Made by a program: the position numbers and the translations under genes. From a virus (taxonomy: Duplodnaviria > Heunggongvirae > Uroviricota > Caudoviricetes), in the IMG/VR virus record IMGVR_UViG_2778261085_000011, positions 1 to 13,532 of that record: 13,532 nt of DNA; one strand, 5' to 3'. This document shows, in pieces, positions 8,954 through 11,569 of the stretch (position 1 is its first letter; each line of letters begins with the position of its first letter). The notes beneath the pieces were generated by a model, which was given only the letters and a program-made list of their open reading frames with translations, searched no databases and was not told the DNA's origin.

Positions 8954-9155
8954 GTCTCACCCCCTGAATATTCGCGTTAATCATTCCGGCATGCTCTGCG
9001 AGTTCCTGTAATGATTCCCTTGTTGCGACAATGGCTTCATCTGGCAGGTGGTAATTACACACCACGCGACCTTTATCCACATTGACCAGTAGCTGCCCGG
9101 TGAATTTCTCACGAAACTGAACGCGGTTAAGGTCGGTAAGTGACAGGTTAATCAT
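8943..9155 (-). CDS. Hypothetical protein (70 aa)
   Basis: ATG at 9155 ([14 protein letters not shown]...) preceded by AGGGGGTG; overlaps the stop of the 178-aa gene. Confidence 0.5.
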
Positions 9156-9684
9156 GGCGCACCCCCTGACGAATACGGGCGGCGAATACAGCGACACAAC
9201 CGGACGGGCAATGGTTACGCGCTTCGCGTTCCGTCCATGCGGTGACGTGGATGATTTGGGATTCTGACGCGCCAAAGATGATAAAGCGCCAGATAAAGGC
9301 AGTTTGGGAATGTACAAGGGTAGGGACTGTAGCCATGTTGGCAGCCTCTTCGTTAGGGTTAATAAACCCACCGCAGGAAACGCCAATTTCGCTGGCGGTG
9401 GACTGTACGGGGTTGGCGTAACCGGTTAACGAAGAACCCGGCGCGGATTGCTCCGCCCCCATACAGCCCACCATTGATAAGGTGTGACTATCCGGCACAA
9501 AAAAACACGCAGGGCGCGTGTTGTGCGCTTCGTTAAATACCAGGACGCCAATCCCGGCACCAGATTTTGCTGGTGCGTATAAATCATAGCCCTGGCTGGC
9601 AGTGGCGAGCAACAGGTTTTTTACATCGGGTTTATTCAGGTTGTGCAAGTCCCGCCCTTGCGGGTGTGTGGTATGATTTAACAT
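9148..9684 (-). CDS. Hypothetical Cys-containing protein (178 aa), first gene of the minus-strand operon
   Basis: ATG at 9684 with GAGGT 4 nt upstream. Plausible amino-acid composition, unlike the upstream part of the long open frame. Cys pairs in PACFF, VGCMG, VSCGGF and NHCPSGC. Confidence 0.5.
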
Positions 9685-9714
9685 AGCTACCTCGATACTA
9701 TTGCTATCGTTGGT

Positions 9715-9761
9715 GGTTAGAAGCCCGGTTAGTGTTGACGCACTGCCGGGTTTCGTCGTTT
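9715..9761 (+). repeat. 47-bp direct repeat copy 1, with embedded hairpin followed by a T-rich tract
   Basis: GGTTAGAAGCCCGGTTAGTGTTGACGCACTGCCGGGTTTCGTCGTTT; stem CCCGG..AGTG / CACT.CCGGG; 45/47 identical to copy 2. Confidence 0.85.
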
Positions 9762-10114
9762 CTGAAGCAGGGATAATAAAAGCGTATATGACTTTATTTT
9801 TTAATGAGTTACATGAAAATAATGTTATGTAAGGCTTTTTGTTTATATATAGACCTATAACAATATTGATAGATTTACAGATGGCGACTGCATAAAAAAA
9901 CACAAAATCATAATCACTAACCGCTCGTTTTCCCCATGATGTTATGCAGGGGGTGAGATACGTGAAACTAGACTGCGAAAGCAATGCCTGGTTTATCGTC
10001 CCAGCCGTATGCGTGGAGAGTTCCTGGCTCCGTGCAGAAGGAAATGAATACGAATAAAAACAGTCAGTGCCGTGAGCTGAGGAACCACGGCATATTACTA
10101 TGCAGGTGACCATT

Positions 10115-10345
10115 ATGAACGATAAAAATTTAATAAAAATACTATCACCAACGAGGAGGAAACGGCGTAAAAAAATGGAGCAAAAGCATGATGTCGAGAC
10201 ATTCACACCATGTGTATTTGCCCTTGAGCAGTTTCTTAAAAGGCATAAGCGTATAGTCATGGGACGATATTCCTGGAAAGTAATTAGCGGCAAAGCTCCC
10301 AAAAAACAGGAACAGTCCAGTTGTAATTCTCTACATTCGCCATAA
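10115..10345 (+). CDS. Small basic hypothetical protein (76 aa), paralog of 11045-11242
   Basis: ATG at 10115 with AGGTGA 5 nt upstream. Shares F-x-PC-x-F-x-LE-x-FLK...MG...WK and a Lys/Arg-rich N-terminus with the 11045-11242 product; same-frame conservation of the two paralogs supports plus-strand coding. Confidence 0.55.
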
Positions 10346-10500
10346 CCCTTCTTGGTTACATCTGGAGTCATCGGTGCAAACATGAAAAATTTCCGACTAA
10401 ACATATATTCACGGTACACAGCCAGGAAGGTGTATATAAATTTAGGGTGAGTTTGGGTATGCTGTGTTCCAGCCATAATCGTTACCTCATTTAACGGTTT

Positions 10501-10547
10501 GGTTAGAAGCCCGGTTAGTGTTAGCGCACTGCCGGGTTTCGTCGTTT
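10501..10547 (+). repeat. 47-bp direct repeat copy 2 (hairpin plus T-tract), about 155 nt downstream of gene 10115-10345
   Basis: GGTTAGAAGCCCGGTTAGTGTTAGCGCACTGCCGGGTTTCGTCGTTT; could act as a plus-strand intrinsic terminator. Confidence 0.85.
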
Positions 10548-10562
10548 TTATGAATCGATCAT

Positions 10563-10662
10563 TGTGAGATACATAGCCATCACAATGTGAGATACACATT
10601 ATATTGTGGTGATATACATTGCAAGTGTTTTTGTATCTCGCTTTTGTGTATAGTGATATACA
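10563..10662. promoter_or_regulatory. Phased array of GTGA(G/T)ATACA motifs (4 direct, 1 inverted, about 22-bp period); candidate operator
   Basis: TGTGAGATACA at 10563-10573 and 10586-10596, GTGATATACA at 10609-10618 and 10653-10662, inverted TGTATCTC at 10632-10639. Lies immediately upstream of gene 10685-10987. Confidence 0.6.
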
Positions 10663-10684
10663 CATAACTAATTGGTGATTAACT

Positions 10685-10987
10685 ATGTCTGTATACAAAA
10701 ATGCAAAATCGCAAATGACAACGATCAGGGTTCCCCACGATGTTATGGAGGGTATGGAATCCGTAAAACTGGACGGCGAAAGCAACGCCGGATTCATAGT
10801 AACCGCCATGCGTGGTGAGATCGCCCGCCGCCAGGCAGAAGGAAGCGGAGAAAATCCCCTGGTTTCTTCGCTCGATGCACTGGCGCAGGTGGAAAAAATC
10901 GGAGTCAAAGCTGCCGAGGAGATCGGGCAACTCGTCACCGTCGCGCGTGAAGAACTCCAGCGCCGCAAGGCCAAAGAACAGGAGTAA
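10685..10987 (+). CDS. Putative ribbon-helix-helix DNA-binding protein (100 aa); candidate repressor or antitoxin-like regulator
   Basis: ATG at 10685 with GGTGA 6 nt upstream. N-terminal pattern [39 protein letters not shown] fits beta strand, helix A, turn, helix B of RHH proteins; this is inference from pattern only. Confidence 0.5.
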
Positions 10988-11044
10988 CCATCACCAGCGC
11001 CGTGGTGCGGTGAACTGTGGCGCACAGGGTTACAGGTATCTACG

Positions 11045-11242
11045 ATGACTGACAAATCATTAAAGAAATTATCTTCATCAAGGAAAAAACAACGCAAAAA
11101 CGCGGTAAGCGAACATGAACAGGAAAGATTCGCGCCATGTGCGTTTGTCCTTGAGAAGTTCCTTAAAGAGTATAGGCGCACAAAAATGGGATCACATACC
11201 TGGAAAACATCGCGGCATGGCGATGTTAAAGAGCAGGAATAG
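11045..11242 (+). CDS. Small basic hypothetical protein (65 aa), paralog of 10115-10345
   Basis: ATG at 11045, TAG at 11240-11242; [19 protein letters not shown]...[28 protein letters not shown]. Confidence 0.55.
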
Positions 11243-11390
11243 CCCACCAGCAAGCCAGTATATTCACCATAATGACCCTCAGTTAAACCTAGAGTCATTG
11301 GTGCAAAGCTGACACATTGCCCACCAGCCGCAAATGTGGCATTGTTGGTGATGCTCATGCGTTGGGGATAACGTGTAGCTTGTGTCGAAG

Positions 11391-11418
11391 GGCCACCGTA
11401 GCGGGTGGCCTTTGTTTT
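11391..11418 (+). terminator. Intrinsic terminator candidate
   Basis: GGCCACC-gtagcg-GGTGGCC perfect 7-bp stem followed by TTTGTTTT. Confidence 0.55.
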
Positions 11419-11514
11419 GCCTGTTATCCGGCAATTGTGGCGCTTCGCTACACGGTTGATATAATCCCACTGCACTGATTCATTTTTTGCGCAGTAGGTT
11501 AATTGTTCGCAAGG

Positions 11515-11542
11515 GCGCTCCGGCAACGGGGCGCTTTTTGTT
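11515..11542 (+). terminator. Intrinsic terminator candidate (second, tandem)
   Basis: GCGCTCCG-gcaa-CGGGGCGC (8 bp with one G-U pair) followed by TTTTTGTT; 28 nt before the convergent alpA stop. Confidence 0.45.
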
Positions 11543-11569
11543 ATGTTCATCGCGTTACGCCTCACACCA

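Follow-up and report, generated by a model that had tools for sequence, protein, structure and literature searches.

An 805-codon minus-strand frame, open antisense through two YlcI cassettes of an E. coli satellite prophage, is a candidate eta-type read-through frame

Why would a prophage keep several hundred consecutive codons free of stops on the strand opposite its own genes? The question is raised by the window analyzed here, a 13,532-nt stretch of DNA (IMG/VR record IMGVR_UViG_2778261085_000011, positions 1 to 13,532) that is a P4-like/PICI satellite prophage of E. coli. On its minus strand, a long ORF occupies 9148-11565, opening with GTG at 11565 (first ATG at 11550) and specifying 805 aa, or 806 codons with the stop; no called gene is on record for this 805-aa product. 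A sequence-only reading had singled out the 806-codon frame, and we found the underlying stop-free run to be longer than claimed, at 819 codons (9151-11607), overlapping alpA at its 3′ end in a different frame. The next-longest stop-free run in the window is 469 codons.

The same reading had called such a run very unlikely by chance, and our counts agree. Within the 641 codons upstream of the ATG at 9684, the long frame contains 0 stops, compared with 45 and 34 in the other minus frames and 19-41 in the plus frames. An independent-base model gives a probability of ∼6e-15 for the absence of stops in 629 codons. In 3000 dinucleotide-preserving shuffles the frame averaged 27.9 stops and never had fewer than 12, corresponding to a Poisson P(0) of ∼7e-13, and no shuffle contained a run of more than 272 codons, whichever of its six frames was read. 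These shuffle stop counts rule out pure chance or dinucleotide composition as the source of the open frame.

Following the frame leftward from alpA, it adjoins, crosses, or contains the following features:

11570-11776, minus strand: alpA (P4 vis homologue), PF05930 match; TAA stop at 11570-11572
11548-11563, minus strand: first nested start, with Shine-Dalgarno GAGG at 11563-11560, a 9-nt spacer, and ATG at 11550-11548
11511-11538, plus strand: intrinsic terminator of the rightward YlcI-orf65 transcript
11388-11413, plus strand: second terminator-like hairpin, within the long ORF
11045-11242, plus strand: 65-aa ORF (orf65) with no family, a paralogue of the 81-aa ORF, antisense within the long ORF; plus-frame pN/pS 0.33
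10685-10987, plus strand: YlcI/YnfO family gene (NF041551, E 5e-20), antisense within the long ORF
10548-10684, no strand: AT-rich operator and divergent promoter region of module 1
10500-10547, minus strand: leader repeat D2, copy 1, 48 nt, containing AACCCGGC, which is complementary to C4
10402-10476, minus strand: second nested start (Shine-Dalgarno GAGG, ATG 10476) and 25-codon remnant of an Icd-type gene (tblastn, 88% identity)
10100-10345, plus strand: 81-aa ORF (orf81) of module 2, with 42-45% identity to orf65
9896-10057, plus strand: decayed YlcI copy of module 2, interrupted in its 5′ part by two in-frame stops and shortened by a 129-nt deletion
9762-9895, no strand: operator and promoter region of module 2; the single-module relative L001 has a homologous region
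9714-9761, minus strand: leader repeat D2, copy 2
9337-9684, minus strand: third nested start (Shine-Dalgarno GAGG, ATG 9684) and "Ash" segment (PF10554), which is the immunity-RNA leader read as protein
9500-9576, minus strand: isrK-type RNA (P4 seqA-type leader element; Rfam RF01394, 80 bits)
9391-9478, minus strand: C4 antisense RNA, homologue of the P4 CI immunity RNA (Rfam RF01695)
9345-9355, minus strand: predicted C4 target UAACGAAGA (9355-9347), overlapping the icd GAGG Shine-Dalgarno (9348-9345)
9148-9336, minus strand: Icd/Kil-like gene, 62 aa, with the fourth nested start (NF033153, E 2e-16)
8943-9155, minus strand: next gene of the leftward operon, sharing 8 nt at its ATG with the end of the long ORF (ATGATTAA)

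At its upstream end, the frame lies directly behind alpA, with 5 nt between the alpA stop and the GTG of the long ORF and 20 nt between that stop and the GAGG-preceded ATG. Further in-frame starts with a GAGG Shine-Dalgarno follow downstream, so that four (11550, 10476, 9684, and 9336) are nested in one frame. The leader promoters are consensus-like sequences only. The minus-strand RNA of the corridor has a C/G ratio of 1.18-1.22 compared with 0.68-0.74 in alpA and the 468-aa replication gene, a modest excess that is partly a by-product of the plus-strand genes.

The middle of the frame consists of two immunity modules in tandem. In-frame duplication had been offered as one explanation for the open run, and the tandem is indeed in phase, since the module repeats recur at intervals of 786 and 801 nt, each divisible by 3. 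The two D2 copies are 96% identical, and the Icd-type remnant at 10402-10476 is joined in frame to module 2. The two immunity modules differ from each other and are fused in frame; recombination within shared in-phase sequence is the probable origin of the fusion. The exceptional length of the frame (805 codons versus 260-540 in single-module relatives) results from this tandem. Across the decayed YlcI copy, the minus frame is still open despite the decay on the plus strand. In the module 1 operator, repeats CATTGTGAGATACA and CAATGTGAGATACA lie at 10560-10573 and 10583-10596. The intact YlcI gene is under clear constraint in its own frame (pN/pS 0.12, codon log-odds +0.21) and probably encodes the ribbon-helix-helix regulator of the switch; a literature search on YlcI/YnfO/DUF3950 found no functional study.

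The sequence-only reading had the frame spanning a real gene, two intergenic regions, and the antisense of three plus-strand genes. The three plus-strand ORFs (YlcI and the 65-aa and 81-aa ORFs) hold up, and the decayed YlcI copy and two terminator hairpins are to be added. What does not hold up is 9148-9684 as an ordinary gene, since two thirds of it is RNA leader and only the last 62 codons are protein-like. The Ash match is strong (E 7.8e-16, residues 36-126 of the 178-aa ORF), and the segment coincides with the isrK and C4 RNA genes. We found no protein-level purifying selection on it (pN/pS 0.88; pN 0.078, pS 0.089). An intrinsic terminator at 9504-9522 lies within isrK, and the C4 match is full length, scoring 76.4 bits against a gathering score of 45. 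The C4 loop has a 9-nt perfect complement, the predicted target UUAACGAAG, in isrK at 9528-9536; this target and the one at the icd Shine-Dalgarno, likewise a perfect 9-nt complement, were identified as exact complementary k-mers, duplex-folding scans being uninformative. Within the frame, protein-like constraint is confined to the Icd/Kil-like gene, with a pN/pS of 0.47.

Is the frame open in relatives? We collected 80 IMG/VR loci solely by YlcI homology, and all 80 have a long minus-strand run at YlcI, which covers the whole gene in 79. The runs measure 179-541 codons, the shortest ending at contig ends, while other frames do not exceed 130. A single frame is kept down to the Icd stop in 58 of the 80. 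The frame is not continuous everywhere: one clade, 21 of the 80 loci, switches frame shortly before the leader is reached and so has two ORFs with an overlap of ∼85 nt. Elsewhere, a frameshift near the 5′ end splits the frame in L031, and L027 and L097 have a stop within anti-YlcI. In the L011/L034 clade, the ORF starts only ∼40 nt beyond YlcI, and an 850-nt stop-rich gap separates it from an alpA-like gene. For most locus types, the long ORF begins at most ∼20 nt from the stop of the preceding gene, as judged from hand-read maps because automatic picks of the upstream neighbor were sometimes spurious ORFs, and the next gene overlaps its end.

The pattern extends beyond these loci. We examined 13 loci from other genera, among them Enterobacter, Xenorhabdus, Photorhabdus, Serratia, Yersinia, Pantoea, and Pseudomonas. 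In 12 of the 13, the same register is free of stops all the way across anti-YlcI, with runs of 215-425 codons versus at most 87 in other frames, and their YlcI proteins are only 48-80% identical. An Icd-like match closes seven of 10 of these runs, in one case scoring below the curated cut-off. A search for relatives among genome contigs with the 178-aa Ash-Icd protein returned no loci. The open frames at 79 of the 80 YlcI loci and 12 of the 13 in other genera support selection against stops, which the sequence-only reading had listed among its possible explanations.

Based on these results, we consider it reasonably probable that the frame is an eta-type read-through ORF, selected for its translatability and not for its product, which protects transcripts from the alpA side against C4-mediated and Rho or intrinsic termination. 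Transcripts originating upstream of alpA would travel ∼2.4 kb leftward to icd and the replication genes, first antisense through one or two divergent YlcI cassettes with their promoters, operators, and terminators and then through the isrK-terminator/C4 leader. Having finished alpA, ribosomes could reinitiate at the GAGG-preceded ATG at 11550 and remain on the transcript up to the icd stop. Such an escort would keep Rho off C-rich RNA that is otherwise untranslated, would block both formation of the isrK terminator hairpin and pairing at the C4 targets, and, whatever C4 does, would bring ribosomes into icd and the overlapping gene that follows. The starts at 10476, 9684, and 9336 might serve transcripts that begin at the internal leader promoters, which would thereby stay under local control. 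The analysis establishes the anatomy, the homology to P4 eta, the conservation of the open frame, and the lack of constraint on its product, whereas the translation of the frame, its coupling to alpA, and the protection from Rho and terminators are what we infer. Most YlcI-Icd modules have neither C4 nor isrK, so that evasion of the immunity RNA cannot account for the open frame in general; only the Rho and coupling part could. The sequence-only reading had left selection against stops "for an unknown reason"; selection is supported, and for the reason phage P4 eta is a published precedent.

An open frame might also be selected for another reason, either to provide N-terminally extended Icd/Kil isoforms from different promoters or to let ribosome and RNA polymerase traffic silence YlcI through transcriptional or translational interference and flip the switch. 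All four nested Shine-Dalgarno starts end in Icd, as isoforms would require, and the corridor always spans the YlcI antisense and the operator, even where C4 or an adjacent upstream gene is absent. However, the lack of sequence constraint on the extensions and their widely varying lengths speak against functional isoforms, while interference needs transcription and not an open frame. The sole experimental precedent, P4 eta, points to anti-termination. We therefore regard these alternatives as unlikely, although they fare best among the competitors of the eta-type reading.

A further explanation does without selection altogether: the antisense register of YlcI and orf65 is stop-poor, one ancestor happened to be open, and a recent in-frame tandem duplication doubled it. 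Given the YlcI protein, this register expects 0.6-1.7 stops per gene, with a P(0) of 0.15-0.5, and the in-phase doubling is genuine. Close kinship is common among the relatives, and breaks are present in some lineages. Yet of the 1923 nt upstream of 9684, just 747 (<40%) belong to plus-strand genes, and the shuffles expect ∼28 stops there. Antisense codon bias, another of the explanations proposed at the outset, thus accounts for only a small share (∼1 stop per gene expected given the YlcI protein). Outside the genes, three unrelated AT-rich operator variants (GC 0.32-0.34) each have 0 stops in the long frame and 2-5 in other frames, and the frame is still open in variants with 45- and 63-nt indels or ∼88 substitutions.

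For each of 15 relatives, we also redistributed at random the substitutions that separate it from the window, keeping to matched classes, an approach preferred to counting stops from single variants since diverged codons carry several changes. For each of the 14 relatives with at least 88 differences, 3.8-7.7 new stops were predicted, and the probability of none was 0.0005-0.017, in pairwise tests among relatives that are not phylogenetically independent; the remaining relative, L003, differs from the window at just 19 positions, too few to inform the randomization. The observed substitutions should therefore have given 4-8 stops per informative comparison. Together with the 12 open loci of other genera, whose YlcI proteins are so diverged, this makes an origin as a mere by-product improbable.

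The last alternative is that the sequence of the product matters and that the frame encodes a real long multi-domain protein, of the "Bro-network" type or of the Icd family, as RefSeq labels its 350-550-aa relatives. Indeed, the upstream 627 aa have matches in 825 database proteins, and NCBI names many of these "host cell division inhibitor Icd-like protein"; invariant motifs such as SAPLPER occur; and Phage_ASH ORFs are treated as Bro-network proteins in PMC10111431. We found that pN/pS outside the overlaps is 0.7-1.2 (1.0-1.2 in operator and leader, 0.73 in the N-terminal part), that is, ∼1 wherever a plus-strand gene or RNA gene is absent. SAPLPER (invariant columns S11-R17) is the minus-frame reading of the plus-strand terminator hairpin at 11511-11538, just as "Ash" is that of the isrK and C4 RNA genes, and operator segments have been exchanged for unrelated sequence. 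Codon usage is not coding-like (log-odds ∼0 compared with +0.16 to +0.33 in real genes). Pfam searches with the upstream 627 aa and with relatives P0003 and P0007 gave no match, and an NCBIfam search of the full ORF gave nothing upstream of the Icd-like segment, leaving the terminal Ash and Icd-like segments as the only families matched. AlphaFold (38 sequences) returned a mean pLDDT of 30.4 and a pTM of 0.20, with no residue at or above 70. A folded long protein is rejected on pN/pS and pLDDT, the initial decision not to call the frame a protein was sound, and a real long protein whose sequence matters is very improbable.

If the eta-type reading is right, the window offers a concrete, testable case of selection for translatability and not for a product, in which no stop interrupts a frame that passes through promoters, operators, and terminators, through RNA genes, and antisense to real genes. 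It would also extend the single P4 eta precedent to a broad set of PICI-like satellites and to the harder situation of reading backward through a whole cassette, and would bear on how satellites, once induced, overcome the silencing of antisense or foreign transcription by Rho. There is a systematic annotation problem as well, as gene callers and PGAP name such frames 350-550-aa "Icd-like" or "Ash" proteins over the real YlcI gene on the other strand. Our broader proposal, which we hold at slightly less than even confidence, is that "translated corridors" form a widespread, unrecognized class in satellite prophages, ranging from those of E. coli to those of Xenorhabdus, Yersinia, and possibly Pseudomonas. 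They would be ORFs of several hundred codons without a functional product, open antisense through a complete divergent repressor cassette so that an induced upstream promoter overrides the local switch. In that case, the corridor would constrain the synonymous sites of YlcI on the other strand, and Pfam "Ash" and hundreds of 350-550-aa "Icd-like proteins" in RefSeq would not be proteins in the usual sense.

Among the closest known systems is P4 eta itself, of which the last 178 codons of the long ORF are a homologue. The P4 eta ORF (8168-8812 of the P4 locus) overlaps the vis 3′ end and matches both PF10554 and NF033153, the latter at residues 161-208 of Eta and at residues 757-800 of the 805-aa ORF in the window. 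P4 isrK (8615-8692) and C4 (8420-8507) both lie within it, in the same order as in the window. Translation of P4 eta prevents termination and the late promoter thereby reads through, according to the account in PMC10111431, which cites Forti et al. 1999 (PMID 10464191). Both ORFs follow vis/alpA, run through a constitutive leader promoter, seqA/isrK, and CI/C4, contain nested in-frame starts, and end as a ∼62-65-aa Kil/Icd-like gene. They differ in that P4 eta has at most 214 codons with no gene on the opposite strand, whereas the 805-codon ORF of the window runs antisense through a divergent cassette (YlcI, small ORF, promoter/operator, terminators), and does so twice. The window ORF adjoins alpA, while P4 eta overlaps vis; and the function of P4 eta is experimental, whereas that of the window ORF is a proposed one.

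The single-module YlcI-Icd switch regions of E. coli PICI/cf-PICI satellites are also close. One of them, the relative L001 (E. coli C311, tRNA-Pro/yejM), shares the insertion site of the window, its integrase (98% identity), and its alpA (96%), as well as the order alpA, long ORF, C4/isrK, icd, with the long frame open for 576 codons. The window differs from it by an extra 801-nt module (10728-9928), which brings a second operator type, the truncated icd 5′ end, orf81, and the decayed YlcI.

In the immI region of phage P1 (c4-icd-ant), the first gene is Icd-like, and expression of the downstream genes depends on its translation. As in the window, C4 derives from the leader of the transcript that it controls, and its loop is complementary to the icd ribosome-binding site, a pairing that is predicted for the window. 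P1 is not known to have a long upstream ORF that reads into icd from another promoter. In place of ant, the window has satellite replication genes.

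The minus-strand long frame is a real, non-random feature. The ORF at 9148..11565 spans 805 aa from a GTG start, and the stop-free run, put at 806 codons by the sequence-only reading, is even longer: 819 codons (9151..11607), by far the longest in the window (runner-up, 469). Upstream of ATG 9684 (641 codons), it holds 0 stops versus 45 and 34 in the other two minus frames. That reading had judged such a run very unlikely by chance, and we agree: P is ~6e-15 under independent-base composition, while 3000 dinucleotide-preserving shuffles gave a mean of 27.9 stops in the long frame (minimum 12) and, in any of the frames, runs of at most 272 codons. 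Chance and composition are thus excluded as its source.

Features of the long frame and its surroundings, right to left
12291-13532, leftward, int
after int, leftward, 80-aa ORF
11570-11776, leftward, alpA (PF05930 match); its TAA stop at 11572-11570, minus
11565, minus, GTG start of the long frame, then a Shine-Dalgarno sequence (GAGG) with ATG 11550
11511-11538 and 11388-11413, two plus-strand terminators, read antisense
next after the terminators, plus, 65-aa ORF (orf65), read antisense
plus, YlcI/YnfO gene (NF041551, E 5e-20), read antisense
AT-rich operator region of module 1 with GTGAGATACA-type repeats, then the 48-nt leader repeat D2
10476, minus, ATG with Shine-Dalgarno sequence, opening a 25-codon remnant of an Icd-type gene
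10100-10345, plus, 81-aa ORF (paralogue of orf65), read antisense
9896-10057, plus, decayed YlcI copy, read antisense
operator region of module 2, unrelated to the first, then the second D2 copy
9684, minus, ATG with Shine-Dalgarno sequence, following the second D2 copy
9500-9576, minus, isrK, with its own intrinsic terminator (9504-9522)
9391-9478, minus, C4
9336, minus, ATG with Shine-Dalgarno sequence of the Icd-like gene (62 aa, NF033153)
leftward, small ORFs, then a DUF4222 gene
beyond it, leftward, 468-aa AAA_25 replication gene, then SSB, ProQ and PerC genes

Four nested in-frame starts, each preceded by GAGG, lie in the long frame, and the end of the Icd-like gene overlaps the ATG of the next gene by 8 nt. 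Over 9 nt the C4 loop is perfectly complementary to two sites, one within isrK and the other overlapping the icd Shine-Dalgarno. A recurrent junction was observed at which the preceding ORF ends in HV(Q)-stop and the next starts MCN, with an 8-nt overlap or right at the stop; it marks where the long ORF begins in loci L009, L032, L082 and L085 and where the gene after icd begins in L009, L026, L033, L039 and L085, and is also present at 8723-8953 of the window. Recombination may use it as a module boundary.

Selection against stops, one of the possibilities raised from sequence alone, finds support in relatives. The open frame is conserved in samples picked without regard to it. Among 80 IMG/VR loci selected solely through YlcI homology, a long minus-strand run passed through mid-YlcI in all 80 and covered the whole gene in 79, with a stop inside anti-YlcI in one; runs were 179-541 codons, contig ends cutting the shortest, versus mostly 36-60 and never above 130 in the other two frames. 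A single frame held down to the Icd stop in 58/80, and in 21/80, essentially one clade, the frame changed just before the leader, with two ORFs overlapping by ~85 nt. In 13 loci from other genera (including Enterobacter, Xenorhabdus, Photorhabdus, Serratia, Yersinia, Pantoea and Pseudomonas; YlcI 48-80% identical), anti-YlcI was open in the same register in 12, with runs of 215-425 codons versus at most 87 in other frames, and 7 of 10 runs ended in an Icd-like match, one below the curated cut-off. Three unrelated operator sequences (GC 0.32-0.34) likewise had 0 stops in the long frame versus 2-5 in the others. We also took the substitutions that separate the window from 15 relatives, one relative at a time, and re-placed them randomly within matched classes. 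In 14 of these comparisons, all involving 88 or more differences, 3.8-7.7 new stops were expected per comparison and none was seen (P(none) 0.0005-0.017); the remaining relative, L003, with only 19 differences, was uninformative. The frame also stays open in near relatives with 45- and 63-nt indels or mosaic replacement. Exceptions are L031, split near its 5' end by a frameshift, and the L011/L034 clade, whose ORF begins just past YlcI without an adjacent upstream gene. Separately, the Icd-like C-termini of the runs in L095 (Yersinia pekkanenii) and L100 (Pseudomonas lundensis) are virtually identical (…LNHTPTRFKFLFLAVCRSDLNAKPHRESVTAHSEQDARRSLAGQFVLSFAGRLPEV), which suggests recent transfer or a contaminated Pseudomonas assembly.

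In-frame duplication, also proposed earlier, is borne out: two modules lie in phase, their repeats recurring at distances of 786 and 801 nt, and adding an 801-nt insert to the relative L001 gives the window. Two in-frame stops in the 5' part and a 129-nt deletion in the C-terminal half make the second YlcI copy a pseudogene; its partner, the 81-aa ORF, is intact. Between YlcI and the leftward leader, 10548-10684 carries a short-repeat array (GTGAGATACA / TGTATCTC / GATATACA), presumably the YlcI operator, and a near-consensus leftward promoter (TTGCAA, about 15-16 nt, TATAAT). The D2 copies (9714-9761 and 10500-10547; 48 nt, 96% identical, 9-bp hairpin possible) contain AACCCGGC, the complement of GCCGGGUU in C4, and their translation TKPGSA.TLTGLLT is still recognisable in Xenorhabdus and Photorhabdus loci. 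Antisense codon bias, the third proposal, helps a little but not more, as synonymous recoding of YlcI leaves no antisense stop with P 0.15-0.5.

As a protein, the evidence says no, in line with the earlier decision not to call the upstream product one. Nei-Gojobori pN/pS, summed over 14 comparisons, was 0.7-1.2 outside the overlaps: the two operator/leader segments gave 1.01 and 1.21, the 'Ash' segment 0.88 and the N-terminal segment 0.73. Only the Icd part (0.47) was protein-like. Where genes overlap, the plus frame was more constrained than the long frame (YlcI, 0.12 vs 0.22; orf65, 0.33 vs 0.49). Codon-usage log-odds were ~0 for the long frame vs +0.16 to +0.33 for real genes, and favoured the plus frame across YlcI. 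A Pfam search with the upstream 627 aa gave no match, AlphaFold2 (38-sequence alignment) returned a mean pLDDT of 30.4 and placed every residue below 70, and the invariant 'SAPLPER' motif is a plus-strand terminator hairpin. The Pfam 'Ash protein family' match (PF10554; 9337-9684, minus) coincides with the isrK and C4 RNA genes, as it does in the P4 eta ORF; the family looks like a conserved RNA leader read as protein, not like a protein domain.

Public annotation nonetheless gives the frame as a 350-550-aa 'host cell division inhibitor Icd-like protein' or an 'ash family' pseudogene. One such artefact is P0002 (NCBI/UniRef; NCBI: Escherichia coli), a 549-aa 'host cell division inhibitor Icd-like protein' with 38 member sequences, which is 100% identical to the long frame over the match, from window 10792 downward, and starts inside the antisense of YlcI. 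PMC10111431 regards ORFs of this kind as Bro-network proteins.

The window is a P4-like/PICI satellite prophage, and identical or nearly identical island copies adjoin yejM and tRNA-Pro. No complete E. coli genome carried at least 80% of the region; the best complete-genome relative, strain C311 (L001), is single-module and carries capsid genes typical of capsid-forming PICIs. A terminator-like hairpin with a T-run (11917-11942, minus) lies just past the 80-aa ORF downstream of int, so that a separate promoter within 11780-11916 probably serves alpA and the long ORF. Several relatives carry the int-alpA RNA motif (Rfam RF02996) between int and alpA (L009 6739-6806, L085 7072-7139, L091 4504-4572, L092 6209-6276); it was not detected in the window at the gathering threshold.

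The last 178 codons of the long frame are a homologue of phage P4 eta: the P4 ORF (8168-8812), which overlaps the end of vis, shares the Ash and Icd-like matches and encloses isrK and C4 in the same order. In P4, translating eta prevents termination and lets transcription from the late promoter read through, whereas internal constitutive-promoter transcripts end through CI-seqA interactions, as outlined in PMC10111431 section 20 (citing PMID 10464191). By analogy, we find it plausible, and on balance probable, that the eta logic operates here too, across 2.4 kb. Ribosomes translating from 11550 would cover the alpA-side transcript on its antisense path through the YlcI cassette(s) and RNA leader, and would continue into icd and the abutting downstream ORFs. 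Three observations are consistent with this model: most locus types have the long ORF starting within ~20 nt of where the preceding leftward gene (alpA, AntA-like or Bro-N) stops; the minus-strand RNA of the window's long frame is richer in C than in G (C/G ~1.2 vs ~0.7 in neighbouring genes); and that frame holds an intrinsic terminator. Since most YlcI-Icd modules are without C4 and isrK, Rho protection and translational coupling appear a more likely general selective reason than escape from immunity RNA specifically.

In the literature, we found no description of an eta-type frame running antisense through an entire divergent cassette and conserved across genera, nor of an in-frame doubling as in the window. 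The kind itself is already known, from the nested eta/kil genes of P4.
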